This document shows, piece after piece, positions 3,109 to 30,390 of a DNA stretch of 42,002 nt. The first letter of the stretch is position 1. Each line of letters opens with the position of its first letter. The stretch lies in the IMG/VR virus record IMGVR_UViG_2563366918_000005; one strand, given 5' to 3'. A program made the translations under genes and the position numbers. The stretch is from a virus (taxonomy: Duplodnaviria; Heunggongvirae; Uroviricota; Caudoviricetes). A model generated the notes under the pieces. That model saw only the letters and a list, made by a program, of their open reading frames with translations, did no database searches and was not told the origin of the DNA.

Positions 3109-3406
3109 GTTTAGACCTCGATATTTTGAAAATCTGAACAACGTTACCGCGTGTTTTAATAACCGCGGCAAGCATGACAGCGTTGATAATGACCTCAGAT
3201 AAATCCACAGCCATTGGCGTGCGTAACCAGATTGCATAGACGACACGAACAGGAATACTGGCCGCAGCAACAATAAGGAAATAAGCAAGCCACCCTCCCC
3301 ATCTTCGATGTTGAGAGCCGTTACGCCGGAATGTGACAACGCGAATTGCTATGCCAGTACAAATAACTGCATTGGTGATAAGCAAAAAAAACTCATGCGT
3401 TACCAT
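3098..3406 (-). CDS. Second holin/antiholin-like small membrane protein
   Basis: 102 aa with about 3 hydrophobic helices; overlaps holin stop and endolysin start. Confidence 0.5.
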
Positions 3407-3972: not shown

Positions 3973-6579
3973 TTATTTCCTGCAAACTCCAGATGATGTT
4001 AATCCATCAAAAATAACCTGCACTCTGGCAATAACAACATCAACTCCAGAAGTCGTTTCACTTGCATAACCAAGTTTTATTTTAGATACAATATCCTGAG
4101 TAAGTTCAGATATTTCAGTTTCTGCAATGTTACCAGAGGCCATGTGATTATCGTATGCCATAGAATGAATTCCATTATTGACATCGATTGAACTAGTATG
4201 TTTGTGAAAAATAGATGGGTTTACCTGAAACGAATTTGAACCGATAAGATCAGAATATACTCCATTCATCACTGCAGTACAGCGTGGAATATTATTATCG
4301 GTTATTGTCATATGCAGACGGTTACCAGTTAACCCCTCACCAAGTGTGACATAATACGCCAATTCTCCACCTGCATATTGTTTCCCCTCAACAATAACAG
4401 TAATCCCTCTTAATTTCTGATTAGCTAGCAAAAACTTATTACTGTCTATATAGCATTTATTTGCGGAACCAAAAACAGCCCCTTCTAAAATATCTGATGA
4501 ATAGGAATAAATAAGGTCACCTGAAACAAAGGAAAGAATATCAGATACGTTTCCTTTTTTAGATAAGTTAGGAGAATAGCTATTAACTATTTCATATTGT
4601 CCTGTGATAAAATCAAGGTAAACGCCATCAGTTTTCATCTCTTTAAAGAAAATGCTATTAAAGCATCCATCAAGAACCGGTGGATATATTCTAGAGCTTG
4701 CATAAGCTGTTGGGTGATTCTTATTATTACCACTACCAGGCGAATAAACATCTTCGTTAGTCATTGACTTTTTAAGCTTAACAGGAATCATCGGCTGCAT
4801 ATCAATTTTGCAGTTCCCTGAACCACCGATGCGAGGATAAAATAAACCACCAAACCTTACAATATTACTACTGAATAGTATTTCGTTATCGTTAAGTGTT
4901 ATCTCAACGAAGTTTCCAATAAGTTTAAATTCAACTGAAAACAAACCAAGTGGAGCAGATAATTTAACAATATTGCGCATAAAAACACCTACAGTCCCTG
5001 TTGATGCAGTATAGTGTGTGGTTTCAAAGGCAGAGCCTGTATATTTCAAGTTAATGAAATTATTATGGTATGAAGACAATTGAAATTGAATCCCAGAACT
5101 AAGGATTTCAATATCTACAAATTGAATCCTTACGGAGTAAGCATATGATAAATCTTCATATTCATAAGGCAATGTAACATCTTTTGAAATAGTTGCCCTC
5201 ACATAATTACCAGAAACCACATCAATCCCATCACGTACAGCATTAAAGTAACGATTAAAATCAATAAGCCCAGCGCCAACATACTGCGCATATGACCGAG
5301 TCCATCCTGCCATTGCGTTTCGTCCATTCTGAGCTTCTAAACTGCTAAATTCAGAGTCACTTGTGGTACTTGATGGGAGGATATTTGTACAAAAAATAAT
5401 TTCAGGCATTGAAGTAATATCATTCAGTTCAGCCATCAATTTAAAAAAAGTTTTCTGCGGGAAGTTACCAACATCCCAACCATCTCCGTCATTCATGCCA
5501 AAAGCAATAATAACAACATCAGGGTTAATATCACGAATGTAATCAATCCAGCGTCTGTTCGTGTCTGAATACCATGGGTACTGTGAGTTATAAGAAGTAA
5601 TTGCTGGTGTATCTTTTCCAAGGTCATAGTACCTCATTCCACCAATTGCTCTGTTAAATAAAGTAGAACTTGGGAATTTCTCTTGCAAAACTCTCTTAAG
5701 ATGAGCGGCAAAAATGCTTGATCGATCCACTGTGCTTATATTATATGGGGCACTTAAGCTGTCACCAACTAACACTATTTTTGAGTTAGGCCTTGATAAT
5801 CTCTCAAGTGTTTTAGATGTGACTAAACTGCAGGAATTAATGAACTGAGTACTATTTAGCATCTGTTCAAGTGTATCACCAAATCTGGTACCAACGTATG
5901 ATGATCCGTTGACACTTGCTAGCTTAAGGCATAAATCAGCAGTATCTGTAATTGAAAAAATAGGAACAGGACGTCCTAAACTGTCATACCCCTGAATTGA
6001 GTTTGCCCTAGAAGATGCTGATGCCATTTCGCTTACTATCTCAGGGAAGCGGAGTGTTTTAGATATGTTGCTGTTAATAACTCCTTTGATAGATGAGTCT
6101 GTATATTTCTTCGTGGAAGCGTCCTGAGGAAATAATGGATCATCAAGGTTACGAATACGATTGCCGAGTGCATCGTAGTAAGTGGCACTAAATGATGGTT
6201 TACGAAGAGCCAGCCGAGCCATGCTTTTGACTAACTGGATCAGCATCGTTAGCTTATCAAAAGCATCCTCATGCACTTCCGCAAAGAACTTACCCTGATT
6301 GCGCAGATCAGTTTCCTGTGTAACCGGTAGCTCTCGTGATATAGAAATCTTATAGCCATTGGCCAACGCCTTCGACAATATTACATTTCCACCATTGTAT
6401 CCTCCGGCCCCGGTAACTATATAATCAGTATCAAGAGTCAGTACGGTGATATTTTCATGAATATCAACAACCTGCACAATCAAATCAGATTTATTGAAAA
6501 CCCTAAAGGCATACGGAAACGATGTCGTAACGCCGTTACCGGTGTATTCGTTGTGGTCAACTTCGGTTGAGACCGTCAT
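3973..6579 (-). CDS. Tailspike/tail fibre protein with central SGNH (GDSL) esterase-like domain
   Basis: 868 aa; RBS GGAG 7 nt before ATG 6579; N-terminal motif YTGNGVTTSFPYAF; central KIVLVGDSLSAPYN and VIIAFGMNDGDG blocks of SGNH hydrolases; C-terminal Ser/Asn/Gly-rich region; distal two thirds look AT-rich. Confidence 0.7.
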   Translation of the reverse strand: MTVSTEVDHNEYTGNGVTTSFPYAFRVFNKSDLIVQVVDIHENITVLTLDTDYIVTGAGGYNGGNVILSKALANGYKISISRELPVTQETDLRNQGKFFAEVHEDAFDKLTMLIQLVKSMARLALRKPSFSATYYDALGNRIRNLDDPLFPQDASTKKYTDSSIKGVINSNISKTLRFPEIVSEMASASSRANSIQGYDSLGRPVPIFSITDTADLCLKLASVNGSSYVGTRFGDTLEQMLNSTQFINSCSLVTSKTLERLSRPNSKIVLVGDSLSAPYNISTVDRSSIFAAHLKRVLQEKFPSSTLFNRAIGGMRYYDLGKDTPAITSYNSQYPWYSDTNRRWIDYIRDINPDVVIIAFGMNDGDGWDVGNFPQKTFFKLMAELNDITSMPEIIFCTNILPSSTTSDSEFSSLEAQNGRNAMAGWTRSYAQYVGAGLIDFNRYFNAVRDGIDVVSGNYVRATISKDVTLPYEYEDLSYAYSVRIQFVDIEILSSGIQFQLSSYHNNFINLKYTGSAFETTHYTASTGTVGVFMRNIVKLSAPLGLFSVEFKLIGNFVEITLNDNEILFSSNIVRFGGLFYPRIGGSGNCKIDMQPMIPVKLKKSMTNEDVYSPGSGNNKNHPTAYASSRIYPPVLDGCFNSIFFKEMKTDGVYLDFITGQYEIVNSYSPNLSKKGNVSDILSFVSGDLIYSYSSDILEGAVFGSANKCYIDSNKFLLANQKLRGITVIVEGKQYAGGELAYYVTLGEGLTGNRLHMTITDNNIPRCTAVMNGVYSDLIGSNSFQVNPSIFHKHTSSIDVNNGIHSMAYDNHMASGNIAETEISELTQDIVSKIKLGYASETTSGVDVVIARVQVIFDGLTSSGVCRK

Positions 6580-6735: not shown

Positions 6736-6755
6736 TACTGTATAAATATACAGTT
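6736..6755. promoter_or_regulatory. LexA (SOS) box TACTGTATAAATATACAGTT
   Basis: Perfect CTGT-N8-ACAG with AT-rich spacer; about 20 bp upstream of RBS GGAG (6763-6766) and ATG 6775. Confidence 0.7.
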
Positions 6756-7192: not shown

Positions 7193-7346
7193 ATGTGTAA
7201 AGCGCACCTATTCTATGGTGGGCTGTGTGGGGGCACCGAAAGGTGCGCCGGGTTCCTTTGTAGCCGGTAAGACCAACTCTGCACAGTTCACCACCATCTG
7301 ATTGGTCTCAGCGGTGGTGATTAACCTAACTACAAAGGTGATCGCC

Positions 7347-8039
7347 ATGAATACCAAACCTTCCATCTTTTCCTTTGAGTCATCCTGCCAGATCCGTATG
7401 TTCATGATTGACGGAGAACCTTGGTTTGTCACCAAAGATGTGTGCAATGCTTTGAATATTGATGTTACACAAGCGAGAAAACTTGATAAAAAAGGCTGGA
7501 ACAAAAAGGGGCTGTATTCAATACAGACCCCTGGTGGAATACAAGAACTATCCATCGTTTCAGAATCAGGTCTCTACATCCTTATTCTGCGTTGCAAAGA
7601 GGCAATGACTGAGGGAACGAGAGCATTCAGATTTCTTGAATGGGTTACAGGCGAGGTTCTTCCTCAGATCCGCCGCACCGGAAGTTACATTAAAAACTCG
7701 CTACCGCAGGAAGAACGCATAAAGATGGTTGCCGACCAGGTAGCCAACGCCACGGCGTCAGCAGTAATGCAGGCGATGAAGATAGAGAACAAAACCTACA
7801 ACGCCCCGCTGAAGCCCGGCTACCGCAGCCTGATTCATTCCCCGTCTGGTGTTCTCGGCCTGACGGAGAACTCACTGCTGATGAATCTGCTGAACCAGTT
7901 ACAGGAAGACGGGCACGACGTATCGGGCGCGGCGGCGGAGCTGACCACCATGTTCTGCTACATCGTCGGTGTGAGCAAATGCCTGCGTGATATCCAGACG
8001 CACGCGGAGTACATCAACGACAAAGCAGGGTTCTTCTGA
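7347..8039 (+). CDS. Antirepressor (N-terminal BRO-N domain, C-terminal Ant/KilAC domain)
   Basis: RBS GGTGA 5 nt before ATG 7347; N-terminus FSFESSCQIRMFMIDGEPWFVTKDVCNALNI matches the BRO-N pattern; C-terminal domain paralogous to 6775..7032. Confidence 0.7.
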   Translation: MNTKPSIFSFESSCQIRMFMIDGEPWFVTKDVCNALNIDVTQARKLDKKGWNKKGLYSIQTPGGIQELSIVSESGLYILILRCKEAMTEGTRAFRFLEWVTGEVLPQIRRTGSYIKNSLPQEERIKMVADQVANATASAVMQAMKIENKTYNAPLKPGYRSLIHSPSGVLGLTENSLLMNLLNQLQEDGHDVSGAAAELTTMFCYIVGVSKCLRDIQTHAEYINDKAGFF

Positions 8040-8103
8040 CGGGCGGCGGCACAGGGATGTGCCTTTAAATAATTCTGTACAGATTGCAGGTGAATAGCTT
8101 ACT

Positions 8104-8120
8104 ATTACCTCACGGGTGAT
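8104..8120. promoter_or_regulatory. Operator-like imperfect palindrome ATTACCTCACGGGTGAT
   Basis: Left half perfect, right half GGTGAT; lies upstream of the mini-ORF and the 8249 gene. Confidence 0.3.
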
Positions 8121-8156
8121 CCATAGCGATTAGGCACCGATACAGGAGGAGCCCAC

Positions 8157-8189
8157 ATGAGAAAATTTGACGAGTACGAAGGCGTTTAA
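8157..8189 (+). other. 10-codon mini-ORF (MRKFDEYEGV) with strong SD; leader-peptide candidate
   Basis: AGGAGG at 8144-8149, 7 nt before ATG 8157; stop at 8187-8189; followed by the hairpin at 8208-8231. Confidence 0.3.
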
Positions 8190-8207
8190 CATTCGGATAG
8201 TTTAATG

Positions 8208-8231
8208 ACGGGGCCATTAGGCCCCGTTTTC
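8208..8231 (+). terminator. Rho-independent terminator / attenuator hairpin
   Basis: ACGGGGCC-ATTA-GGCCCCGT stem followed by TTTT. Confidence 0.55.
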
Positions 8232-8248
8232 ATGTCTGGAGACAGTTT

Positions 8249-8788
8249 GTGTTAAGTGAAGAAATGCAATTTGCCATGGCTGTGGCTCAAATCGTAAGTG
8301 CAGTCGCGGTTTCGCTTGGCTTGTTCATAGCTATCGCTACTATTATTTATAATGTAAATACAGCGAGAAAAGTACACACTTCAGTATTCCTTGGTGAAAG
8401 CAGGTTTGATGTAGATTATAAGAAAGGCCTATCTACTATGCGCCGCATTCACGAATCGAACAAATCATTCCGCTCTTATATGTATCCAAGCAATGGGCAG
8501 GCTGATCTTACGGATGAAGAAAAGACAGAGAAGAGAGAAATAATTTACTGTCTAGGTTTCTACGAACGCATGGCTGTGAGCGTGAAGCGGAAAACTTATG
8601 ATGAGACCATGATTAAGGAAGTATTTTACAGCTCCGTTGTAAATAACTATCAGATTGCGCTACCTCTTATACAAGCCATTAGAGAAAAAGAAAACATAAA
8701 CACATATTTTAAAGAATATGAATGGTTGGCCACACGATGGAAGGATTGCCCATTGAAGGATAAATCCCCGTGGTACAAGTTTTGGTAA
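8249..8788 (+). CDS. Hypothetical membrane-anchored protein (AT-rich accessory gene; exclusion/defence candidate)
   Basis: RBS GGAGA 6 nt before GTG 8249 (alternative ATG 8264); N-terminal TM helix AVAQIVSAVAVSLGLFIAIATIIY then about 140-aa soluble domain; visibly AT-rich; followed by a terminator-like T-run at about 8789-8811. Confidence 0.55.
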   Translation: MLSEEMQFAMAVAQIVSAVAVSLGLFIAIATIIYNVNTARKVHTSVFLGESRFDVDYKKGLSTMRRIHESNKSFRSYMYPSNGQADLTDEEKTEKREIIYCLGFYERMAVSVKRKTYDETMIKEVFYSSVVNNYQIALPLIQAIREKENINTYFKEYEWLATRWKDCPLKDKSPWYKFW

Positions 8789-8882
8789 GCCAGCGCTGCG
8801 GGCTTTTTTTGTGGACGAAACAAAAGTCAGTGCTACACTCATTGACGCCACATTGAGGTGGCTTATAGATGGAAATTTCACA

Positions 8883-9044
8883 ATGAAAAAAGCATTTGCT
8901 GCACTGTTCGTTTTGTTGTCTCTGGTAGCTTCAACTCAGGCTTTTGCCGGTCGTTGTCAGCACGACAGCGATACTGCCGCTGACGGCTCCCGCTGCGGTG
9001 GGCGTTCTGCGGATTCCCGCCCGGGTGGCGGTGGCATTCGTTAA
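8883..9044 (+). CDS. Small secreted Cys-containing peptide (hypothetical)
   Basis: Internal start of track ORF 8811..9044: MKKAFAALFVLLSLVASTQAFA then a 31-aa Gly/Arg/Asp-rich region with 2 Cys; weak RBS. Confidence 0.3.
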   Translation: MKKAFAALFVLLSLVASTQAFAGRCQHDSDTAADGSRCGGRSADSRPGGGGIR

Positions 9045-9046
9045 AA

Positions 9047-9066
9047 ACAAGGCCGCGAAAGCGGCC
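9047..9066 (-). terminator. Terminator at end of late virion operon (between convergent units)
   Basis: GGCCGC-GAAA-GCGGCC hairpin with T-run on the minus strand. Confidence 0.5.
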
Positions 9067-9075
9067 TGTGACATG

Positions 9076-9372
9076 TCACGTCCCTTTTCTGAATGATAGC
9101 CATTCGAAAAATGATGACATTCCACCGCAGACAACAGCAAAGATGATCCCACCAAAGAAGAGAATGCCAGCCTGCCACCACTCCCACCGCCATACATCCA
9201 CAGCGCCAACCATACCAACAATCGCTCCAACAAATGGAATATAGCTCACGATGAAAGCAATGGGGGCTGCAATTATCCAGTGCAATCCCCACCATGATTC
9301 AAGCCCAGCCATAATTGCTGCCAACTGAAAAAGACCAACGACGATATAAACAATGAATCCTATAGCTTGCAT
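9076..9372 (-). CDS. Small Trp-rich integral membrane protein
   Basis: 98 aa, 3 hydrophobic helices; RBS AGGTGA before ATG 9372; stop codon sits inside palindrome GTGACATGTCAC. Confidence 0.55.
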   Translation of the reverse strand: MQAIGFIVYIVVGLFQLAAIMAGLESWWGLHWIIAAPIAFIVSYIPFVGAIVGMVGAVDVWRWEWWQAGILFFGGIIFAVVCGGMSSFFEWLSFRKGT

Positions 9373-9384
9373 GTAGTCACCTAT

Positions 9385-9558
9385 TTACCCAGTAAAAATC
9401 AGAGGCCTCCCCTCAATAAGGCTTGCAACAAGAACTATTCCCTGCACAACAAAGATGAACCAGCAAATAGCTTGAGTCTGAGGGTTAAGAAAATATTTGT
9501 AGCGGTCAATAAATAACAACCCACCAAAAATTATCACACTCAAAATAATTAAAAACAC
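9385..9558 (-). CDS. Possible small membrane protein (57 aa, not in ORF track)
   Basis: GTG start with AAGGAAG 4 nt upstream; product VFLIILSVIIFGGLLFIDRYKYF… with two hydrophobic segments. Confidence 0.3.
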   Translation of the reverse strand: MFLIILSVIIFGGLLFIDRYKYFLNPQTQAICWFIFVVQGIVLVASLIEGRPLIFTG

Positions 9559-9567
9559 AACACTTCC

Positions 9568-12042
9568 TTATTGCGGAGTGACATCCTGAGGTCGCCACCA
9601 GTATGTCTGGTTAAACTCTTTCTTCGAACGTTGCTCCATTTTACGCAAATAACCTGGTGAAAAATACTCCTGCATCTGGTTAAAGATCATGTGATCGAGA
9701 GCCGCCTTTAAGTACCAGAGATTCGCACCTGGCATCAGACCTTTCCCCAGCTTGACCAGATCACCACCAGTCTGCTCATTCTTCCCTTCCACAGCATTTA
9801 ACGGTATGCCCTGAGCAATCTTCACTACGTCATCAACCAGACCAGCTACCGGGCCAAGCATCGACGCCAGCGCGCCGCTTCCGTACCTAGTGTGATCTGA
9901 CAATAAAAAGTCACCGTAAAGGCCAAGACCACCACCTTTCAGTAGAGCACCAAGCCAAAATTTAGCAGCATCTTCTCCTGTCATCTCACGAGGATTACGA
10001 CCAGACGCAAGGTCGTTAAGTTGCTGCGACAAAGCGCCAAGAATGGTCGTACTGGCAATAAACGTCGCAATATATGCCGCACGCCCACCAGCAGACGGCA
10101 TACCCATAGCGCGTGACCAGTGACGCATAACCACCGAGATAGGGAACGATTTAAACAGGAAAACACTTCTCGTTAATTCACCTTTCCATGTTCCACGCTG
10201 AATACCAGAACCGGTTATCAGTTGCTCACGTGCTCCCGGTGTAATAACAGCCATATCAACTTCTTCAGTTACGGCACCGAGCAGTTTACGCATTGCCTCA
10301 AATTTCACGCGTTCAGGCTCACCAAGATGTTTAACTGCTGAATCAGGGATACGCATAATGCTTTCCGGTGTCAGCATCGTATTATTACCGTTCCCCCAGT
10401 CCTCCTGTTGCGCCAGCTTCCATACGCTCCAGTCTGTGTCAGTAATTCCTTTGCTTTTCAGGATACGAAAATCAGAGTCATCGAGGCTACGAAGGTCTGG
10501 TGTCCGTGACACTACTTCTCCCAGGCTTCCCATCATGGTTACGCCATAGGCGCGCTTGTGCGCATCTGACCATGCTGTAAGCCCACTGGCACGCATTACC
10601 GCCGTTGCCGCCCAGCGAGACACTGACGGCCCCATATTATCCATCGCCCAGCGGTTAACGCTGCCAAGTAGAGATTCCATCGCCAGACCAGCGCGGCGCG
10701 CCCGCGCAAGTTCTGTACGGTTCGTTGGGTCCATAGCTTCAAGCTGGTTGCGGAATAACTGGTTCATTGGAAGGTTGGTAACCTTCGCAGACAGATACAT
10801 GGTTCCAAGATCAGAGAACGATGACAGCAACGCGGATCCGAGTCTGCTGGCAACCAGCCAGTTGCGGATATTGTCAGACCATCGCGCGATGTGCGGATTT
10901 GCTACAGGCTGTGTCTTTCCGGAAATAAAGTTGTACAGATTCTCTGTGTTGTTCGCCAGCCGCTCGACTTTACCGGTTTTACTCGGGTTAGCTGTTGCCG
11001 TTTCTGCCTTCACCTGATCAAGAAGAGAGCGGAAAACATGATCTGGGTTTGGGCCATATGTTTCCACCAGTGCAATATCTTTACTGATACCTTCCAGGTG
11101 ACCGACCATGATTTCCCATAGAGAGCGATCGCCATAAAGTTGCTGATATTGCAGATAGGAATCTGCATCTTTGAAATGTATCTGTCGTGATGCATTACCA
11201 CGGTTAGCACGTGCGCCGGAAATTCGCATTCCGGTATCAGTAAGCTTATTCAGCCCACCAGTAGCGATCGTGTTATAAGCCTCTCCAAGAAATGCAGACA
11301 ACTCGGCATCGTTCATCAGTTGTCCATCGGCTCGGATATAATATTTGCGATCCAGCTTACCTATAACATCGCTAACCCACTTATCCTTTGATACCGCCCC
11401 AACCTTTTCCATAGAATGATGTTGAGGGATCCCCCAGTTTTCGAGATAGCCAATGTCCCCGCCAGCATCATTAAACCGGCGGCGCAGTAGATCTGTCACT
11501 TCTCTCCACGCCTTAGCACCTTTTCTTGCTTTAGCATTGCCAGTATTTTGTCCTCGCATTTCATATACCAGGTCACGCACGCCAGCTTCATCTTCAAACA
11601 GGCCAAAAAAGCGAGGATCAACTGCTTCAAATGCCTCCTGCAATTGACTCAATGCATAATCACGAGTGGCTTTTGTTCTGGACTCAACAGAGAGGAAATT
11701 CGATTTACCGTCTGCATTAAAAGCAATAGTACGGTTAAGAGCGCCAAGTTTCCCATCAGCCCCTTGATAGCTATTGATAAATTTATCCAATCTCTGACGT
11801 GCGGCTATAGTGAGGGCCACACGACGTTTCTTTAATGCCGCTTCTCGCTGTAATTCTTCAGATGCCAATTGTGCTGCTCGATATAGCCGCTCTGATTCGG
11901 AAAGTTGTCTCCACGACATCGGGTCATCACGAGCAATGGAGCGCATATTTCGATAAATGCGGTCTTCAATGTTCTGTATTTCTCGCGCCGTTAACGTGCG
12001 CTGCGCCGCCTGCTGAACCGCTTGTATACATTCCTGTCTCAT
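9568..12042 (-). CDS. Large internal virion / ejection protein (T7 gp16-like position)
   Basis: 824 aa; last large gene of the virion operon; assignment by position and size only. Confidence 0.5.
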   Translation of the reverse strand: MRQECIQAVQQAAQRTLTAREIQNIEDRIYRNMRSIARDDPMSWRQLSESERLYRAAQLASEELQREAALKKRRVALTIAARQRLDKFINSYQGADGKLGALNRTIAFNADGKSNFLSVESRTKATRDYALSQLQEAFEAVDPRFFGLFEDEAGVRDLVYEMRGQNTGNAKARKGAKAWREVTDLLRRRFNDAGGDIGYLENWGIPQHHSMEKVGAVSKDKWVSDVIGKLDRKYYIRADGQLMNDAELSAFLGEAYNTIATGGLNKLTDTGMRISGARANRGNASRQIHFKDADSYLQYQQLYGDRSLWEIMVGHLEGISKDIALVETYGPNPDHVFRSLLDQVKAETATANPSKTGKVERLANNTENLYNFISGKTQPVANPHIARWSDNIRNWLVASRLGSALLSSFSDLGTMYLSAKVTNLPMNQLFRNQLEAMDPTNRTELARARRAGLAMESLLGSVNRWAMDNMGPSVSRWAATAVMRASGLTAWSDAHKRAYGVTMMGSLGEVVSRTPDLRSLDDSDFRILKSKGITDTDWSVWKLAQQEDWGNGNNTMLTPESIMRIPDSAVKHLGEPERVKFEAMRKLLGAVTEEVDMAVITPGAREQLITGSGIQRGTWKGELTRSVFLFKSFPISVVMRHWSRAMGMPSAGGRAAYIATFIASTTILGALSQQLNDLASGRNPREMTGEDAAKFWLGALLKGGGLGLYGDFLLSDHTRYGSGALASMLGPVAGLVDDVVKIAQGIPLNAVEGKNEQTGGDLVKLGKGLMPGANLWYLKAALDHMIFNQMQEYFSPGYLRKMEQRSKKEFNQTYWWRPQDVTPQ

Positions 12043-12047
12043 TTAAT

Positions 12048-13850
12048 TTAACCTCTCAAGAAACACGCCACAGCGACATCAAACAGGCTGGAATCCTGTA
12101 TTGCCTGCTCACTTTCCATGTTCGCTTCATCCAGTACTTCACGCGCACTGCGCGATTGTGGATTACCATCATCATCCAGCACGGTGATTATCATGTCAGG
12201 TGATTCAAGCAGCGAGTCTTCAGCTATGCGCAGATCAATATCTCCTGCCTGATCTGACATCATTTTTTGTTCTGCCTGTTGCAATATTTTATCAGCCTCA
12301 AAAGGAGCTACTTCGTCTGGCGTCCTGACCTCTGCTGTTTTATAGAATGAAACAGCCTGAGCATTAAGTTCACTTTCAGCCTGCTGTCTCCGTGCCAGTT
12401 CTGCTCGAGCTTCAAAAAACTGACCGCCAGGCTCATGCGGTGCCAACACGTTACGGGAAAATTCCAGGCGTTCTTGTGCCTGCCGGATTCGTTGGTCAAT
12501 ATCGCGAAGTCTGGCCTGTTTATCTGATCGAGCACGAGATAAAGCCTTACCGCTACCGGTTGGCTCTTCTGCAAGAATTTGTGCGCGCTGTTCAGTGAGA
12601 TTTTCAATAATTCGTTGGCTATTAGCGATTTCAGACTGGTAAACCTGTCTATCGCCACGCGACAAAAGCTGCGCGGCCTGTTCTTCAAGCAACCGATTTT
12701 CTATAGCGCGCGCCGTTACTCCATCATCTACAGATGACAGAGCCTCATTAACTGCCTGAGACAGCAGACTCTTGCGCCCAGGAATTTCACTGAAAGATGC
12801 AGACTCAACAATGCTGGCAACGTCTACAGGTCTCCCCTGGCTAACATCAGACATGGCTTTTCGCAGAGCCTGAATGTGCGAATTACGCGAAAGCACGTTG
12901 ATCGGAACGCCGGGAGCAATATCAATTTCAGCATGATGAGCGGCATTCGCCGCCAGTGCAGCATCAATATCAACTGGTGAAAAATTTGGTGCGCTTGTAG
13001 ACTCGCCGCGAGAGTTAATAAATCTGCCGACACCACCAAACGCCACCCCAAGAACAGCATCAATAGCAATTGCCTGTCGATCCAACACATCATACTGGTT
13101 AGCCATTTCGCTATAGCCACCATCACGAAGCGTTTTTGCAGTAAGCCCACGCTGTGCCATACCGAACGCAATATTTGTACCTGCGGCATAGGCAATATCT
13201 GGCGTTGCACGTACTGCTGTTGCTGCGGCGCGTCGCACTGAACTTTCACCCGTCCGCGCAAGCTGAGCCGCCACACCTTCCGCCAGCGCACCACCAGCAC
13301 GTAACCCGAGGCTCATAGGGATCAGTGTTCCGGCACCAGCAGTAATACCCTGCACTAATCCCGCTTCCTGCGCCGTCCTGAAATCAACACCCTGTGCTGT
13401 CAGCCGTTCAAACTCAGAAAAACCCTGTAGAGAAGTTACCGCCGCAGCACCTCCGACCGGACCACCGAGCGTTGTACCGACAACAGCCTGCCCGCCCATA
13501 TCGAACAACCCATAAAGGACCTGCCCGGCGGTTCCGGTTGTCGCGGCATCAGGCGTCAGCCGCTTAACCTGCTGCTCTGCTAGTTTTCTCTGCTCAGCAA
13601 TGTATGAAACTGAAGTGTCATTGAGCGAGGTGTTTTCGTTAACAAGCTGAGCAATCGGGGATACGATTTTATCCATCCCTGCCCATAGCAACTGATCTGG
13701 CTTTGCCACCAGCCCGGAGTACAAACCAGACAATGCCGCTCCTACAGCATTGTCGAAAAAACCAACATCGCTGTTAAAGCCAGCTGGATTTGATGCTGCT
13801 TCGTCAAGCTGCTGATTCTGGTTTACTGGATTAAGGCCAAAGTAACTCAT
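12048..13850 (-). CDS. Virion structural protein (Gly/Ala-rich, internal protein candidate)
   Basis: 600 aa; coupled to neighbouring genes in the late operon. Confidence 0.5.
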   Translation of the reverse strand: MSYFGLNPVNQNQQLDEAASNPAGFNSDVGFFDNAVGAALSGLYSGLVAKPDQLLWAGMDKIVSPIAQLVNENTSLNDTSVSYIAEQRKLAEQQVKRLTPDAATTGTAGQVLYGLFDMGGQAVVGTTLGGPVGGAAAVTSLQGFSEFERLTAQGVDFRTAQEAGLVQGITAGAGTLIPMSLGLRAGGALAEGVAAQLARTGESSVRRAAATAVRATPDIAYAAGTNIAFGMAQRGLTAKTLRDGGYSEMANQYDVLDRQAIAIDAVLGVAFGGVGRFINSRGESTSAPNFSPVDIDAALAANAAHHAEIDIAPGVPINVLSRNSHIQALRKAMSDVSQGRPVDVASIVESASFSEIPGRKSLLSQAVNEALSSVDDGVTARAIENRLLEEQAAQLLSRGDRQVYQSEIANSQRIIENLTEQRAQILAEEPTGSGKALSRARSDKQARLRDIDQRIRQAQERLEFSRNVLAPHEPGGQFFEARAELARRQQAESELNAQAVSFYKTAEVRTPDEVAPFEADKILQQAEQKMMSDQAGDIDLRIAEDSLLESPDMIITVLDDDGNPQSRSAREVLDEANMESEQAIQDSSLFDVAVACFLRG

Positions 13851-16360
13851 TGCGGAATATCTCCGGAGAATCTCTGACGCTTCTGTGTCAGATCAAGAAC
13901 AACAGGAGAACCATCATCTTTCAGCAGATAACCAGTACCAAGTTTCACCAGGTACTGACTATCGCCGTAACTTTGCAAACCATACTGACCAGGCGGTGTT
14001 TTTATCCCGGTGCCGACAACTTGTTCATTCCAAGCCTGATTAACCTGCTTATCGAATTGCTCTGCAGACATTCCCCACGGCAAAAGAACATTCCCCATTC
14101 CGTTATAGTCATGCACGCCACCTGTAGCTACGTTAACAGCCTGTTTCCAGATATCATTGTCAATTTCGCCTGATACCACGCCTTTTTTCGCCATCACACC
14201 AGCGTAATAGTCCTTTGCGATCTCGTATGCCATTGATGCCCCCTGAGCATCACCAGCAAATGCATCCTTCACCATGTCAGAAAACTCAAGGCGAAGATCA
14301 GCATCTTTAGGCATCGGAATACCTTTCGCGTCATCAGTACCTTTACGAGCCGCCGCGCCAGCAAGAATTGTCTGCGCAGCGGTTTCAGGAGACACGGAAA
14401 CATCCGGATTAAACCAGTTTTTTTCTGCCAAAATACCACCAGGCTTGTCCATCAGTATCCCGGCAACGGCAGCAGATGGAGCGTTGGCACTGATCTGCTG
14501 TAGTGCTGACATATACACCTGCCCACCACCAGTGCTCTGCCTGATGGTATCGAGATATGCTGCCTGTTGGGAAACGGGCGCATCACGAAAGAAAACACCG
14601 ATCTGATTGGCCTCGTCTTTGGAAAAGAACGTCAGTGGAGTGCCATATGACTTAGCAAGGTCACTGACCTGAGCAGCACGCAAGGCAACGCTCTGTCCAA
14701 AGTTATCCTTATTGCTCATGTCGATAGGCTTTGCCTGTCCGGCGGCAAGAGAGAACTGTACAGGATCAGCCTGTCTCTGCTTTATCACCTGACTTGCAGC
14801 CGACACAACGTTGTCATAAAGAGCGGCTCGTGCCGCATAACCCTCCCCTGTCTCACCAGTATCCGGGCGTAATTGCTCAACATATGCTGTAATGCTGCTT
14901 GTCGGCATGTTGCGGAAAGAGCCTATATACTGTCCGGCGATTTGCGTATTTCTGAACTCGGTATATCGCAGGTTTCCTTCTCTGACTCCATAAGCTGCAA
15001 TAAAATCAGCCTCACCAGGTGGGTTAGGAAATTCAACGCCACGCATATACGCAGCTGTCGCATCGCGAACTTGGCTGTCAATCATCGTTTTATATTCAGC
15101 CTGCTGCTGCCGACGCAGTTGATCCGCCTGTCGCATAAAACTTGCCTGCGCCTCAGGAGATGCCGCATCGAATGCTGCATTACCGGTATAGCGTTTGGTG
15201 TTGGTTGGAATTGTTGATAAACCAAGTGCTGCACTGACACCAGCAGTTAACTGCTGATCACTGTATGGCTGGCTACCGTTCTCATGATGGATAATGGCTG
15301 CACAAAGCGCCTTCAGGGTATCAGGATTAGATGCATCGAGAGGCTCATCAGCAGAAACGCCAAGTTGTTCGCACACTGCTTTGATATACGACATAGTGTC
15401 ATTTTTATCAGTAGGCGGTGCCCAGCGATTAATTATCTCGCTGACGGTATCAATACCCTGCCTCTGATACGACATCAGGTTCCGCCCTAATGCACGAATC
15501 CCGTGTTCAGGTGTTTCGAATTTAGCAAATCGACCATCATCACCGGTCTGGCCTACCCACGGATTGGTTTTGCTGTATTCGAGATTTCCTGGGTTATTGT
15601 TGCGTATGCCACGGGCACGCTCGGAAGAATCACTATCTGCTACAGCACGGCGAGCTCCAGCAGCAGTATCACTTAACTCGCCATTACTTTGGATGAATGC
15701 GGTCGCATTGTTTGCCGACCACTGGGACAATGCTGCATCAGCAACCTTCTCTTTAAACTCGATTTTCTTGGCCTGGATTTGCTCGTCGCTCCAGCCATGC
15801 GCAATGCCGTAATCCTCAATTTGCTGGAAAGTTTGCTTATTAGCCAATACGTATGCGGCGTTGTCGCCATACAATGCTGCGGCATTTTTACCATTGTTCA
15901 GCAGCGTCGCCTGAAACTGGCCTTCTTCGTAGGCATTTATTTGCCATATCTCGTGCCGCCCGGCCTGCGTAGTGAACTGAATGCGCTGCTGCTGCGCCTG
16001 CTGCATGAAAGCATTACGAGCCTGTTCATCCGGCAGCGACATAGCCAGTTGCTCGACCTGGGCATCAAACTGCTGCGTATACTCCTGACCTTTTCCAATA
16101 GCATTTTTCCCTTTCAGGTTAAGCAAACCTGTTTCAGGGTTATTCAGCAGATCGCTGCTTATCTGACTGAGGTTAAGGGATGCCTCCTGTGCCAGAGCGA
16201 TATTGGCACGCTGTTTTGCCTGACCAAAAACATCAATTGCCTCTGTCCCTGCCCGAACAAAAGCATCACCAATACCAGGCTGAGAAAACGTCTGCAAGCC
16301 TGCTGACTGAACGCCACGGCTCTGAACCTGACGGCCGGATACTGTTGGTACGACTGGCAT
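13847..16360 (-). CDS. Large internal virion protein (T7 gp15-like position) with conserved RGIRNNNPGNL…RWAP motif
   Basis: Start moved to ATG 16360 (RBS GGAGG 6 nt upstream), overlapping the upstream stop; 837 aa. Confidence 0.5.
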   Translation of the reverse strand: MPVVPTVSGRQVQSRGVQSAGLQTFSQPGIGDAFVRAGTEAIDVFGQAKQRANIALAQEASLNLSQISSDLLNNPETGLLNLKGKNAIGKGQEYTQQFDAQVEQLAMSLPDEQARNAFMQQAQQQRIQFTTQAGRHEIWQINAYEEGQFQATLLNNGKNAAALYGDNAAYVLANKQTFQQIEDYGIAHGWSDEQIQAKKIEFKEKVADAALSQWSANNATAFIQSNGELSDTAAGARRAVADSDSSERARGIRNNNPGNLEYSKTNPWVGQTGDDGRFAKFETPEHGIRALGRNLMSYQRQGIDTVSEIINRWAPPTDKNDTMSYIKAVCEQLGVSADEPLDASNPDTLKALCAAIIHHENGSQPYSDQQLTAGVSAALGLSTIPTNTKRYTGNAAFDAASPEAQASFMRQADQLRRQQQAEYKTMIDSQVRDATAAYMRGVEFPNPPGEADFIAAYGVREGNLRYTEFRNTQIAGQYIGSFRNMPTSSITAYVEQLRPDTGETGEGYAARAALYDNVVSAASQVIKQRQADPVQFSLAAGQAKPIDMSNKDNFGQSVALRAAQVSDLAKSYGTPLTFFSKDEANQIGVFFRDAPVSQQAAYLDTIRQSTGGGQVYMSALQQISANAPSAAVAGILMDKPGGILAEKNWFNPDVSVSPETAAQTILAGAAARKGTDDAKGIPMPKDADLRLEFSDMVKDAFAGDAQGASMAYEIAKDYYAGVMAKKGVVSGEIDNDIWKQAVNVATGGVHDYNGMGNVLLPWGMSAEQFDKQVNQAWNEQVVGTGIKTPPGQYGLQSYGDSQYLVKLGTGYLLKDDGSPVVLDLTQKRQRFSGDIPQ

Positions 16361-16905
16361 TATAATCCTCCGGGTAATCTGGTTCCTGCTGCTGCCCCGA
16401 TTGGCGCAGGGGTGCTTTGAGTAAACGGACTCCACGTCCCACCAAACATCTGGTACGCACCGTATGCCTTCAGAGGCGCAGTGAGCAATGTTGTTGCTGC
16501 TCCCACATTCCCCTGTTTACGGGCTGAACTGGCTTCTGCTTTATAGTTGGCAGCCTGAACCTGATAACCGTAAGCCTCGCGTTGCGCGTTATTCGCCGTC
16601 GTCAGAGAATCAAGAGCGCCAAACTGGGCAGTGTCGCCAAATATATCCAGCGCGTTACCTGTAGATAAATCAGCGCCGGTAGCCCCCATTGTCGCCGCCT
16701 GTGTACCAAGCCGCTGTCGGGTCTCTCTGCGCCGTTGCTCAGCTTCAGCGTTACCTCTGTTTATTGCATCATTTGCCTGAGCTGTGGCTATATCTGCGTT
16801 CGCTTCTGCAACCTTCGAGGCATACTTTCCCTGTTGGTACTGGGTGTATGCCTGAATGCCACTCATGGCGAGCATTGCGCCACCAGCAATAACCGGATCG
16901 CACAT
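16360..16905 (-). CDS. Virion protein (T7 gp14-like position)
   Basis: 181 aa, Ala/Gly/Gln-rich; coupled within the late operon. Confidence 0.45.
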   Translation of the reverse strand: MCDPVIAGGAMLAMSGIQAYTQYQQGKYASKVAEANADIATAQANDAINRGNAEAEQRRRETRQRLGTQAATMGATGADLSTGNALDIFGDTAQFGALDSLTTANNAQREAYGYQVQAANYKAEASSARKQGNVGAATTLLTAPLKAYGAYQMFGGTWSPFTQSTPAPIGAAAGTRLPGGL

Positions 16906-17369
16906 TATTTTCTCTCCATGTGAAATCTGTGGAAATTAAGACCAAGAGCACCATAAGGCGCGGCTTCTTCAAGCCTGAATCCAAGCCAGTGCAGCCATGC
17001 TTTGGCAACATGGTTTCGCTCGTCGACATAGTTTTCCAGGCGCGGATAAACTGCCAGCATCTGCTGCAATACAGGGCGGCAGTGGCGAAGAAATGTCTTC
17101 TGATATTTTTCGATACGGCTGGTTCCGACCAGCCATGGCGTACCATTGCCACCGATCATTGACGCCGGAGATACGCCAAACATGGTTACCAGTTCTCCGT
17201 TCGCGAACCCTGACCAGGCCATAGTCGCAGTGCGAAGACCAACACGCAGCGCATCTTCGGTAGTCATCAGCGATACCGCATACAGTTCGTCAATATCAGC
17301 CTGACGAACATCCGGCAAAATCATCTGAAGATGCTCTTTGGTGGCGGGAATAATTCGAACATCGATCAT
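16905..17369 (-). CDS. Virion protein (T7 gp13-like position)
   Basis: 154 aa; start/stop overlap with both neighbours. Confidence 0.45.
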   Translation of the reverse strand: MIDVRIIPATKEHLQMILPDVRQADIDELYAVSLMTTEDALRVGLRTATMAWSGFANGELVTMFGVSPASMIGGNGTPWLVGTSRIEKYQKTFLRHCRPVLQQMLAVYPRLENYVDERNHVAKAWLHWLGFRLEEAAPYGALGLNFHRFHMERK

Positions 17370-27055: not shown

Positions 27056-27249
27056 CCAACGCCATTCATGGCCATATCAATGATTTTCTGGTGCGTACCG
27101 GGTTGAGAAGCGGTGTAAGTGAACTGCAGTTGCCATGTTTTACGGCAGTGAGAGCAGAGATAGCGCTGATGTCCGGCGGTGCTTTTGCCGTTACGCACCA
27201 CCCCGTCAGTAGCTGAACAGGAGGGACAGCTGATAGAAACAGAAGCCAC
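26974..27249 (-). CDS. insA: IS1 InsA
   Basis: 91 aa, [42 protein letters not shown]… matches IS1 InsA. Confidence 0.85.
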
Positions 27250-27304
27250 TGGAGCACCTCAAAAACACCATCATACACTAAATCAGTAAGTTGGCAGCAT
27301 CACC

Positions 27305-27313
27305 TGCTGCCTA
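27305..27313. repeat. IS1 target-site duplication TGCTGCCTA (right copy)
   Basis: See left copy. Confidence 0.8.
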
Positions 27314-27864
27314 TTACCATGGGTAAACAATATCATTAACGTATGGCAAGCAAAGCCTCTTGATAATAATGACTCAATCGAAAATCACCTGAAGGCAAGA
27401 AAAATCCAGCGTGAAACAAGACTGCAGAGGTTATTGGCTAAAAAAGATGTTACATACGACAAAGTTAAGACTGGCGCGGAAAAAGACATCCAAGAGATGA
27501 AAGAAGAGATTATTCGATCAAAGAATAGTATGGGGGAATTGACTGCCGAGTTGAAAGCTAAAGATGACGAATTGAGATCCGCCAGTGCTCAGTTAGCAGC
27601 TCTAAATCATTCATTAAAAGAGATATCGGAAACTCTTGGAAGAATGAATGAGGCATATAAGACCCTCCAAAATGATTTCGACGAATACAAACTCAAATAC
27701 CCTGAAAAATCTCAAATAAAAAGCCTTGAACTTGGCAACGGCCAAACAATTAGCAACTTTTTGGAGCAACACAACTTATCCGGATTAAAATCTGGTAAGC
27801 CAAACGTTTTTAATAACTTTGGTGTTCTATCTGGATTATCAGGTTTCGAGGATAAAAATAAAGA

Positions 27865-29340
27865 CTAAGCATATGGATCGTACTCGGTAAGCGCCTTGCC
27901 TTGCTGGTTCTGCTGCCCGGGAAGTCGCAGGCGCTTTGACACCGGGAAAGCAAACGTCAGCAGTAGCGCATCGCCTTTACCAGGCGAACGCCCAAGTCGT
28001 TCTTTGATATCTTCCTTCGGTTCGATAACGATTTTACCGTCCACGCGAACTTTGTACTCTGCCGCCGACAGATCGTCCGCTGTTTCCTGGTCATCCAGCA
28101 TCCCGCCCAACCTCAGCCATGTCTTGCATGAGTTGAACATCTCCCCGCGCTTGTTGAGCATCTGAGGGTCAGTTGACGCACCACCGAACGGAACAAGTTG
28201 CCATGTGCGCCCCCAGCCGTCACCGATTGACTTCAGACCGGTTCCGTAACCGAAGTCGATGAACACCGCGTCAGCCTGATACTGGTCTTCAAAGTCAGCG
28301 ATACGCTTCGCCATAATCAGATCGTCAGTGGTCTTGTTGCCAGTCCATAGCACCTTACTATGCAACCCCTGCCGCAGGTATATCACCGCGTCATCAACGC
28401 CTGAATATGCCGGGTCAACACCGATTATCACCGGAGCATGTGCCACCTGCGCAGCGGTTACCACCCGTTTCATTGCCTCATCAGTAAGACCGGTAGGGAT
28501 AAACTGCAATTCAGATGCATCAGGGAATATGCCGCGCACACGGATTTTAACGAAGTCGCTGTCTTCCCCGTAGTCATCAACCCATTTCTGCAACTGCTGT
28601 TTGTTAGTACCTTCCACCGTCCGGCTGTCAATCTGCGCAGTTTTCCAGCGGTGTTTGTATTTGCGGAAACATTCGCGAAAACGCCCGGTATTACGTGTAG
28701 GGTTTCCGAACGCCACCCAGATAATCTCAGTGTCTTCGTCCGTAAGCGCACCCTCAGCAACTTCCCACACCAGATCCGCAATGTTCGACGCTTCATCGAA
28801 TACCACGATGATGCGTTTGCGCTCGTTGTGTAGTCCGGCGAATGCCTCAGTGTTGTGCTCAGACCAGGGGATTGCGTCAGCTCGCCACCGCTTGTCGTGC
28901 CCAGGATCATTGCTGTACATCGCGGTAGCGGTACAGGTAAACCAGTCTTTCGTGATAGCAAGGTTCGACCACTTGATAATTTCCGGCCAGGTCTTCGTTC
29001 GTAGCTGGTTGTCGGTGTTGGCGGTCACCACGACCTTACAATCCTCGCAAGTGGACATGCCCCAGTTGATCAGCATTGAGATGAATGCGGATTTACCAAT
29101 ACCGTGACCAGAAGCACGTGCCAGCATAAGCGGCTGATAACGCGTCTCTGGATTCTGCAGGTGATCACGTATCTCTCGGAACGCATCGGCCTGCCACTGA
29201 CGTGGGCCGGTAGCATGTGCCAGTTCAGTCCCCTCTTCCCCCCACGGGAACGCATAGAGGGCATAGCCAAGCGGATCGTGAGTGAACCCTGCAATATCCT
29301 CGATTAACTGCTCTTCAGGAGATAACGCTGTATCTGTCAC
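27865..29340 (-). CDS. Terminase large subunit
   Basis: 491 aa; Walker A-like ARASGHGIGKS; GTG start overlapping terS stop; convergent with the accessory gene (4-bp stop overlap). Confidence 0.85.
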   Translation of the reverse strand: MTDTALSPEEQLIEDIAGFTHDPLGYALYAFPWGEEGTELAHATGPRQWQADAFREIRDHLQNPETRYQPLMLARASGHGIGKSAFISMLINWGMSTCEDCKVVVTANTDNQLRTKTWPEIIKWSNLAITKDWFTCTATAMYSNDPGHDKRWRADAIPWSEHNTEAFAGLHNERKRIIVVFDEASNIADLVWEVAEGALTDEDTEIIWVAFGNPTRNTGRFRECFRKYKHRWKTAQIDSRTVEGTNKQQLQKWVDDYGEDSDFVKIRVRGIFPDASELQFIPTGLTDEAMKRVVTAAQVAHAPVIIGVDPAYSGVDDAVIYLRQGLHSKVLWTGNKTTDDLIMAKRIADFEDQYQADAVFIDFGYGTGLKSIGDGWGRTWQLVPFGGASTDPQMLNKRGEMFNSCKTWLRLGGMLDDQETADDLSAAEYKVRVDGKIVIEPKEDIKERLGRSPGKGDALLLTFAFPVSKRLRLPGQQNQQGKALTEYDPYA

Positions 29341-29933
29341 TGATTACCATCCTGACGTTCTTTGAGTCGCTTCCTGGCTGCTGCTATGCGATCAGCAATT
29401 GTCACATTCACATTAACATCCAGACGTTCTTTGAACGCGTTGACATCAACATGCTTACCAATCAGCTCAAGGTTCTTCACCTTGTCAGGCCATTTAATTT
29501 TTTTGAGGATTGTCTCTATCGAATCCTCGTTCATGTTCATGATGGTCGATGACAAATCAAAGCCACTAAGCGTAGTGCGCCAGATTTTCGGCCACTCACG
29601 GATTGGTTTAAGGCTCCCATCGTCGTTGAGGATGTCGATCACGTCCATCTGGTCGATCTGCACCAGGCGCATGAGAACGTAATCAGCACTGACGCGCATT
29701 CGTTTGTTGCGCTCCTCCATCAACTCGGCAATCCGTTTTTGAATGCGTTCATCGCGCATCATGACACTGGCTTTAACTGCCGCTGTATTTGGGGAGAATC
29801 CTGCGTTAATCGCTGCCTGAGTCTGGTTTTCAGGCGTTTTGATGTATGACTGGCAATAAGCCTCCTGCATTGCTGTTAGTGGCTTAAATTGCGTTGATTT
29901 GCGTTTATAGGTTTTAGGTTCAGCAGGCATCAT
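29337..29933 (-). CDS. Terminase small subunit
   Basis: Start placed at the MMPAEPK Mets (29933/29930, RBS GGTGG); the longer track ORF (to 30011) would read through an upstream terminator and repeat region; about 198 aa. Confidence 0.6.
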   Translation of the reverse strand: MMPAEPKTYKRKSTQFKPLTAMQEAYCQSYIKTPENQTQAAINAGFSPNTAAVKASVMMRDERIQKRIAELMEERNKRMRVSADYVLMRLVQIDQMDVIDILNDDGSLKPIREWPKIWRTTLSGFDLSSTIMNMNEDSIETILKKIKWPDKVKNLELIGKHVDVNAFKERLDVNVNVTIADRIAAARKRLKERQDGNQ

Positions 29934-29940
29934 AACCACC

Positions 29941-29969
29941 GTGGTAATAGTTACCGTTGTGGTAATAGT
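29941..29969 (-). promoter_or_regulatory. Two direct repeats GTGGTAATAGT just upstream of terS (late control region candidate)
   Basis: Copies at 29941-29951 and 29959-29969, between terminator and terS start. Confidence 0.3.
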
Positions 29970-29976
29970 ACCATGC

Positions 29977-30002
29977 AAAATAAAGCCGCCATAGTTGGCG
30001 GC
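29977..30002 (-). terminator. Terminator between nin-like operon and late (terminase) operon
   Basis: GCCGCCA-ACTA-TGGCGGC hairpin followed by TTTATTTT on the minus strand. Confidence 0.5.
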
Positions 30003-30051
30003 AGTATTCAAAACCCATCAAATTCATCATGCATAATCTACTCGTGACATG

Positions 30052-30390
30052 TCACACTATTAATTTCGTTTCATGCCAGCCTTTAGTCACCCAGCATTGC
30101 GAGTCACCATTACACGGGCATGAATTAACTGGAACTCTCTCGCCGCACTTACCGCAACATTTTCTGCTGATCGATTTTATACGCCCGCGCACGCGTGCAT
30201 CATCCTGGCGGATCAGTAACGCTATATACTCACCAAATTCGTAAGGCGCACGCCCGGGGCGACGCGTGGCACAGTTACGCTCCAGCATTTCAATTTCCTG
30301 AGCATCAAGCACAATTTCCAGCTTACGCACACCAGATGCAGCTTGTCTGGCTCTCTGAGCGGCTTTGCGCTCTGCTGCTGATTTAGCCAT
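30052..30390 (-). CDS. Hypothetical Cys-rich (zinc-binding?) protein; late-regulator candidate
   Basis: 112 aa; RBS AGGAAA before ATG 30390; C-terminal CCGKCGERVPVNSCPCNGDSQC cluster; last gene before the late operon. Confidence 0.45.
   Translation of the reverse strand: MAKSAAERKAAQRARQAASGVRKLEIVLDAQEIEMLERNCATRRPGRAPYEFGEYIALLIRQDDARVRGRIKSISRKCCGKCGERVPVNSCPCNGDSQCWVTKGWHETKLIV

Follow-up and report, generated by a model that had tools for sequence, protein, structure and literature searches.

Among described systems, the host chromosome-organising site matS and its protein MatP offer one of the closest comparisons for the element discussed here, the 12-bp palindrome GTGACATGTCAC, which occurs twice in a 42,002-bp stretch of viral DNA (IMG/VR record IMGVR_UViG_2563366918_000005, analysed whole and called the window below), a phiV10/epsilon15-like (Uetakevirus) prophage. 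MatP reportedly contains a ribbon-helix-helix (RHH) domain. The matS consensus is 13 bp long, GTGAC[AG]N[CT]GTCAC, and no prophage of Escherichia or Salmonella was found to carry a true matS (PMC3603311). MatP is described as unloading MukBEF at matS (PMC8669397). The half-sites GTGAC...GTCAC are identical in matS and in the phage element, and each of the two is a palindrome with a small number of scattered copies. However, matS (GTGACRNYGTCAC) has 13 bp, whereas the phage motif has 12 bp with a strict 2-bp spacing, the phage copies sit at gene ends on the phage, and the phage protein has a four-Cys module where MatP has a four-helix bundle and a coiled coil, with no detectable homology between the two. 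A search with the 13-bp consensus gave no match in the window and one match across all fetched loci, the site GTGACACCGTCAC at 19491-19503 of Vibrio phage K308 (locus L041), a phage that has three 12-bp copies as well. As all copies of the palindrome have 12 bp with a 2-bp centre, matS itself was rejected; a partly matS-like mode of action is possible for the element, which nevertheless falls outside the matS family. A strict 13-bp search, as in the survey finding prophages without matS (PMC3603311), would miss such a 12-bp relative.

Other systems share the placement of the element or part of its sequence. RHH regulators (P22 Arc, Mnt, CopG, the ParD and TacA antitoxins, TraY, TraM) have their operators in promoters upstream of their targets, in contrast to the phage site, which is located at the 3' end of the regulator's own gene, beside terminators, and the phage protein adds a zinc module. 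An operator of LacI lies at the 3' end of lacI, where the bound repressor acts as a roadblock, leading to non-stop mRNA and tmRNA tagging. In both cases the site covers the end of the regulator's coding sequence and allows, at least for LacI, gene-specific negative feedback within a longer transcript; LacI differs in being a helix-turn-helix repressor with its main role at the promoter. In the lambda Q/qut/tR' system, the regulator gene is likewise the last before the late genes, with a DNA site right downstream and a terminator next, and Q also contains zinc. The Q binding element, however, is embedded in a promoter with a sigma-dependent pause, and no conserved promoter or pause was found at the palindrome; moreover, the phage protein is half as large as Q, with an unrelated sequence, and extra copies of its site are present at operon ends. 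The site of SlmA, a host protein of the TetR family, is GTGAGTACTCAC, also a 12-bp palindrome with the same outer GTGA...TCAC, but its four inner bases differ (CATG vs GTAC).

Since the 12-mer is kept letter for letter in related phages and travels with one protein, it is most likely the DNA docking site of that protein and not a product of chance. The comparison of genomes thus points, as the most likely case, to a DNA-binding protein with its cognate palindrome, unusual in that the site covers the stop codon of the regulator's own gene and has terminators beside it, with a modest chance of a phage counterpart of the host matS system. The explanation favoured here, to which even chances are given as a whole, is that the palindrome would be the operator of the phrog_536 protein, located at transcription-unit boundaries and acting as a roadblock or insulator. 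As far as could be found, the element is real, strongly selected and previously unannotated. A literature search did not find the exact GTGACATGTCAC in any paper of the library searched, and targeted searches on epsilon15/phiV10 and on MatP/matS with phage turned up no account of the element or of what the protein does. A precise DNA motif can now putatively be linked to a widespread uncharacterised phage protein family, and a protein annotated merely as "hypothetical" or "transcriptional regulator" becomes directly testable. The palindrome also marks transcription-unit boundaries in Uetakeviruses, in which gene regulation is essentially unstudied, and its near-identity to host matS raises the concrete question of whether phages copy or sidestep the host chromosome-organising code.

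Copies of the palindrome in the window and in related phages

An exact scan of the window finds the palindrome at 9068-9079 and 30044-30055 and nowhere else, in agreement with the first-pass annotation, which had reported the repeat from the letters of the sequence. When up to two mismatches are allowed, one additional weak match appears at 23586, and no copy was present in 100 dinucleotide-preserving shuffles of the window. In both copies, as that annotation had also noted, the minus-strand TGA stop occupies palindrome positions 2-4 (open reading frame (ORF) 30052-30390, 112 amino acids; ORF 9076-9372, 98 amino acids) and a terminator hairpin with a T run follows (30002-29985 and 9067-9050, minus strand). 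The CRP site is a symmetric sequence of 22 bp, TGTGA-N6-TCACA, whereas the arrangement here is GTGAC-N2-GTCAC; a CRP site, already dismissed earlier for its spacing, was therefore rejected. Because the repeat was chosen post hoc, all perfect 12-bp palindromes of the window were counted, giving 9 where 10.3 are expected, and the only repeated one is GTGACATGTCAC. By our own arithmetic, the chance that two are identical among 9 random 12-bp palindromes is about 36/4096 (~0.009), a figure that alone is suggestive, not decisive. The deciding evidence is comparative conservation, which rules out a chance repeat, and we are highly confident that the palindrome is a selected DNA site.

Conservation was followed in ten complete or near-complete genomes of the Uetakevirus type (phiV10, TL-2011b, phiv142-3, an E15-like Salmonella phage, Tyrion, PAS61, 66FD, BUCT711, HEMP4 and the window), whose hosts are Escherichia, Salmonella (66FD among others), Enterobacter (Tyrion) and Klebsiella (BUCT711). 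The 12-mer has three syntenic places: site 1 over the stop of the Cys-rich protein gene, homologous to phiV10 gp55, site 2 after terL, and site 3 after the head-tail block. Sites 1 and 3 are present in 10/10 genomes. Site 2, just after terL, is present in seven, two of them with an altered centre, and missing in the window, TL-2011b and BUCT711; in most relatives it lies about 30 nt past terL, beside a hairpin. In the window, which has lost site 2, a plus-strand ORF (27434-27868, phrog_4780) abuts terL (end 27865) with zero intergenic space. An IMG/VR scan with a family alignment, restricted to relatives of at least 95% identity, gave 80 close relatives, 78 of which reach the stop codon. Site 1 is the exact 12-mer in 77 of these 78, the remaining one having a single change (GTGAAATGTCAC), and site 2 is present in 53 of the 80 and missing in 27. 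The palindrome is thus retained in close relatives with the same gene order, the first-pass annotation having named its absence there as grounds for doubt.

The alignment of site 3 shows an invariant palindrome next to a gene-side flank that cannot be aligned. In phiV10 and PAS61 another small gene precedes it, with its stop 8 nt before the palindrome; the upstream gene of Tyrion stops one base ahead of it; the window, phiv142-3 and HEMP4 have a different gene, which extends into the TGA of the palindrome. As flanks and upstream genes differ while the 12-mer does not, the element is conserved independently of coding context, a check that the earlier annotation had proposed. Overlap with a stop codon is not a requirement, as the site-3 upstream genes of phiV10 and Tyrion end a few bases before the palindrome, but the stop-codon register recurs in unrelated genes (9076-9372 in the window; 14752-15594 in locus L020).

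Three observations on single records may be added. The Tyrion record was opened exactly at the palindrome centre, between GTGACA and TGTCAC (record end 41760), and the phiV10 record just after the palindrome TGA (record end 39104), so that site 1 of phiV10 spans the record ends, with one mismatch; both openings probably reflect a numbering convention. The E15-like Salmonella phage (L005, ~39880-39950) has a tandem duplication of the palindrome-terS terminator, with two copies of GGCCGCCGACTATGGCGGCTTTGTTTT.

The general motif and its protein family

The sites of diverse phages share a general motif, GTGAC-NN-GTCAC, with invariant 5-bp half-sites and a variable 2-bp centre. In 1.25 Mb of fetched loci, almost all picked for carrying a homologue of the 112-amino-acid protein, the 2-bp spacing gave 76 matches against 1.19 expected, and spacings of 0, 1 and 3-8 gave 0-2 matches each; lambda, which does not encode the protein, has zero copies. 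The possibility raised by the first-pass annotation, that the motif is frequent elsewhere and so of little meaning, is not what these counts indicate, with two copies in the window. The centre is AT in the epsilon15 type, CG in Yersinia, TG in the N15 type, and AC or CG in the Vibrio phage. Constant half-sites around a variable centre are the signature of a dimeric DNA-binding protein that would not read the centre.

A search by protein alone, with one genome per species, gave 31 loci (Citrobacter, Klebsiella, Pantoea, Erwinia, Yersinia and others), and in most of them the motif overlaps the homologue's stop or lies at most 6 bp away. Yersinia homologues of ~40% identity have GTGACGCGTCAC at the stop. 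N15 gp46 (35% identity) has GTGACTGGTCAC with its TGA as the stop, and N15 contains three copies, all of one 12-mer, one of them 12 nt before gene 47. A motif overlapping or adjoining the stop was also found in the N15-like phage Kpn_R1 and in the P2-like Yersinia phage YenM_56.17. Vibrio phage K308, whose homologue is 32% identical, has three 12-bp copies, two being 19 nt before start codons, one of these that of terS. Exceptions among the 31 loci are L012 and L013, with the motif 81 and 205 bp past the stop, L020, with no copy at the homologue stop and two elsewhere, and L010 (gene 3' end replaced) and L038 (contig ends inside the gene), with no motif. At L017:232, L020:3890 and L021:4164 the palindrome is within a small early ORF, where it encodes C-D-M-S and is nucleotide-identical in three otherwise diverged homologues.

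These associations suggest that the element is universally tied to the 3' end of the protein's own gene. It is considered likely that the site is bound by the phrog_536 family, with the 30052-30390 protein as the candidate binder in the window, which was the proposal of the first-pass annotation and appears to be the best-supported one. PHROGs places the protein in phrog_536, labelled "transcriptional regulator". Searches of Pfam, NCBIfam and PDB sequences gave no match, and no Pfam RHH model matches it. Residues R8, R13, R43, R44, R61, C79, C82, C91 and C99 are invariant in the family. The weak fold matches are to double-stranded-DNA binders and are RHH-like, and the predicted architecture is a basic N-terminal helix, a probable RHH-like core and a C-terminal four-Cys zinc module. 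The family comprises 726 sequence clusters in the protein search and 153 records of podo-, sipho- and myovirus-type temperate phages, with hosts in Vibrio, Escherichia, Salmonella, Klebsiella, Yersinia, Aeromonas, Enterobacter, Pectobacterium and Citrobacter; related phages that keep the palindrome infect gut and marine bacteria.

Genome layout and the proposed boundary role

The features of the window around the copies are listed below, from the right side to the left.

30052-30390, minus strand: gene of the 112-amino-acid basic Cys-rich protein, homologue of phiV10 gp55 and N15 gp46 (phrog_536); last gene of the early-right gene run (minus strand), followed by copy 1 and then a terminator
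30044-30055: palindrome copy 1 (GTGACATGTCAC; site 1), over the TGA (30052-30054, minus strand) of the Cys-rich protein gene
29977-30002, minus strand: intrinsic terminator, GCCGCCAACTATGGCGGC then TTTATTTT, ~40 nt downstream of copy 1, ending the early-right unit
29337-29930, minus strand: terS
27865-29340, minus strand: terL
down to 9568-12042, minus strand: portal, head and tail genes, plus two small ORFs before copy 2
9076-9372, minus strand: gene of a 98-amino-acid membrane protein (phrog_3075), stop inside copy 2; variable among relatives
9068-9079: palindrome copy 2 (GTGACATGTCAC; site 3 of relatives), over the TGA (9076-9078, minus strand) of the last head-tail block gene
9040-9067, minus strand: intrinsic terminator, AGGCCGCTTTCGCGGCCT then TGTTTTTAAC, directly abutting copy 2
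8811-9044, plus strand: small membrane protein, convergent island
8249-8788, plus strand: DUF4760 protein, convergent island
7302-8039, plus strand: anti-repressor, convergent island
3973-6579, minus strand: tailspike
2000-3809, minus strand: lysis genes (holins, endolysin, spanin)

The palindromes bracket the packaging-head-tail block and not every late gene. The proposal of the first-pass annotation that they delimit the virion, or late, operon holds for this block; it does not hold strictly for the late genes, since the 9068 copy is followed further on by the tailspike gene (3973-6579) and the lysis genes (2000-3809). A delimiting role is further contradicted by the third syntenic copy right after terL in relatives and by copies before ribosome-binding sites or inside genes in other phage types. 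Just past the lysis genes, ORF 1219-1728 (minus strand) matches the transposase families phrog_2577 and phrog_2393.

The Uetakevirus copies each adjoin an intrinsic terminator, always on the upstream side relative to the hairpin's good T-run direction. The terminator after copy 1 is kept in relatives, and the one at copy 2 separates the head-tail block from the convergent plus-strand accessory genes (7302-9044). A terminator-like element is within 80 nt of 59 of 100 distinct-context sites and within 5 nt of 36, compared with 2.5% and 0.3% of random positions, many of these sites being homologous, so that the counts are not independent. The palindrome itself was rejected as an intrinsic terminator, having a stem of at most 4 bp and no T run, in contrast to the adjoining elements 30002-29985 and 9067-9050, which qualify. 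Terminator stems at site 2 covary (AGCCAGC/GCTGGCT vs AGCCCGC/GCGGGCT) next to an unchanged palindrome; the hairpin changes in the manner of an RNA structure and the palindrome in that of a directly read sequence. Between copy 1 and the hairpin lies a mini-ORF (30008-30034, minus strand; MHDEFDGF and stop), ending 5 nt before the stem, which is kept with synonymous changes in loci L012 and L014 (MTDEFDGF, MRDEFDGF) and has no counterpart in phages of the E15 and Tyrion types; its product could be a leader peptide acting on the terminator.

A second dispersed palindrome, ATTACC-N5-GGTAAT, is matched 14 times in the window, where 1.2 matches are expected, and 15 times in phiV10. Almost all transcription units have it in front (terS, portal block, tailspike, lysis genes, integrase and both sides of the repressor gene), with 17-bp sites at 6683, 7063, 8104, 25636, 26253, 29932, 29950, 33409, 33471, 35393, 35778, 36490 and 36552 in the window and at 86, 104, 3251, 20876, 24691, 26869, 31952, 32014, 32726, 33111, 35069 and 35131 in phiV10 (L002). 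The motif resembles a single operator or promoter element in use throughout the genome, which may be the site of the prophage repressor. Its position ahead of terS suggests that the early-right unit truly stops at the terminator after copy 1 and that a separate promoter region serves terS, in which case the three Uetakevirus copies would mark the ends of three units.

In the operator and roadblock explanation, it is proposed that the palindrome would be a sequence-specific double-stranded DNA site with two 5-bp half-sites and a free 2-bp centre, bound by the 30052-30390 protein as a dimer. The protein gene and one copy of the site, overlapping or adjoining its own stop, would form a unit, with one to three more copies elsewhere in the genome. 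Uetakevirus copies would then represent the 3' ends of the early-right unit, of terS-terL and of the head-tail block, each beside an intrinsic terminator, where the bound protein could serve as a boundary element for RNA polymerase, either a roadblock or an insulator. Such a block would limit how far transcription of the protein's operon continues into the packaging genes, as well as read-through between the late units and the accessory-gene units that converge on them, and at the stop codon of the protein's own gene it might cause negative feedback on the protein's synthesis. Boundary or roadblock action of the bound protein, taken separately, is a tentative proposal.

Several observations weigh against this explanation. 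The link of protein and site appears as a purely genomic association, and an Aeromonas phage with a ~30%-identical homologue has no site. Copies inside genes (structural genes of BUCT711, repA of N15, the small early ORF in L017, L020 and L021) fit a simple roadblock poorly, as a block there would seemingly be harmful. In Pantoea, Yersinia, N15 and Vibrio contexts no such terminator is found beside the site; the adjacency is thus lineage-specific, and a terminator-linked action is not a universal function. No palindrome accompanies the other phiV10 terminators, located downstream of the lysis genes and of the tail-fibre gene. Finally, the copies at sites 1 and 3 are upstream of a terminator toward the late genes, which suits a loader of antitermination at least equally well.

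Alternative explanations

One of the ways in which the palindrome might act otherwise is as an architectural element similar to matS, in which the protein, in the manner of MatP at matS, holds two to four copies together or marks phage DNA in some other way, in order to organise the phage DNA, insulate it or keep host MukBEF off. In this scheme gene ends would be where a compact genome can hold a 12-bp site most cheaply, and the TGA inside the site can double as a stop, which agrees with the recurrence of the stop-codon register in unrelated genes (window 9076-9372; L020 14752-15594). The motif equals the matS consensus less one central base, the phage protein weakly resembles the RHH fold of MatP, and the copies are few, dispersed and sometimes inside genes. 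MatP occurs in roughly the same host range as the phages with homologues. It also unloads MukBEF (PMC8669397). However, homology of the phage family to E. coli MatP is undetectable (hhalign probability 0.13% over 13 columns, with a single MatP sequence on that side), the protein has a short N-terminal helix instead of a four-helix bundle and no predicted coiled coil, and the copies cluster at unit boundaries instead of being evenly spread. An architectural function is considered unlikely, and a broader version, in which phages of enterobacteria and vibrios would have their own matS-like system (an RHH-zinc protein with two to four 12-bp sites) organising or insulating their DNA and evading host MatP, is distinctly unlikely.

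The second mechanism, antitermination loading of the Q type, is also distinctly unlikely in our view. It assumes that the protein docks upstream of a terminator, transfers to passing RNA polymerase and enables read-through, so that, late in infection, transcription of the early-right unit would continue into the packaging and virion genes. The gene is in the position of lambda Q, last before the late genes, with the site and then a terminator immediately downstream; every Uetakevirus copy is upstream of a hairpin in the good T-run direction, and the late genes are interrupted by terminators and reverse-oriented accessory-gene islands. Of the features of a Q-type site, copy 1 has the terminator that follows, and its promoter-like matches reach 9 of 12. 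Across lineages, though, neither inspection nor the promoter scanner, whose best matches overlapping the palindrome are 9-of-12 only, found a consistent sigma-70 promoter or pause element around the site, and candidate -10 elements are not conserved between lineages. For the same reasons, and because no -10 is present at sites 2 and 3, a promoter with GTGACA as -35 was rejected. A loader at the copy after terL would carry transcription of a reverse-oriented accessory gene through into terL, in antisense. Late regulators resembling Q or Ogr are already encoded next to the homologue in N15 and in the P2-like Yersinia phage, and the late units apparently have promoter regions of their own.

It could further be assumed that the 12-mer and its neighbouring terminator form a recombination linker at module boundaries, a short homology patch for module exchange. 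Megablast homology to phiV10, PAS61 and TL-2011b ends at 9080 of the window, one base beyond the palindrome, and that to EC.W1-9 at 9069; different genes adjoin the gene side of the palindrome at the end of the head-tail block, and alternative inserts start 2 nt past the first copy in L060, L076 and L125. Breakpoints beside any strongly conserved element are expected anyway, however, and 12 bp is short for homologous exchange. As such a linker leaves unexplained the invariant half-sites, the free centre, the strict 2-bp spacing and the link to one family across four phage morphotypes, it is regarded as very improbable.

Less probable again is recognition by the host, through MatP or some other nucleoid factor, or by terminase, as a pac signal. 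Half-sites identical to matS, a copy ~114 nt upstream of terS in the window and 19 nt upstream in K308, and phiV10 and Tyrion records opened within the palindrome would agree with it. Against it, the site has 12 bp and not 13 bp, and the window has no true matS, which prophages of Escherichia and Salmonella lack (PMC3603311). A pac signal would not be expected in several copies per genome (two to four), nor in phages with unrelated terminases (N15, with cohesive ends and its own cos; P2-like phages), and the tie to the phrog_536 gene is left unexplained.

The least probable is a signal in RNA, a small hairpin that would be located in the 3' untranslated region or ahead of a ribosome-binding site and bound by the phage protein or a nuclease for processing, stability or translational control: although most copies are transcribed and those 19 nt before start codons in K308 and 12 nt before gene 47 in N15 recall Com of phage Mu, a zinc-finger protein that binds mRNA and controls translation, a 2-nt loop is impossible, the stem has 4 bp at most and is missing from 2 of 4 minimum-energy folds, no compensatory changes occur across highly divergent phages while neighbouring terminator stems covary, and the weak fold matches of the protein are double-stranded-DNA binders. 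On the grounds of this weak stem and zero covariation the RNA hairpin was rejected, and the processing signal suggested by the first-pass annotation finds no support.

Sites of a known host regulator are located near some of the palindromes. LexA boxes follow the palindrome in loci L008, L009, L013 and L016, preceding inserted accessory genes (UmuD-like in L009 and L013), and the window contains a consensus LexA box at 6738-6753 (CTGTATATTTATACAG), which precedes a small plus-strand gene (start ~6775) between the tailspike and the anti-repressor.

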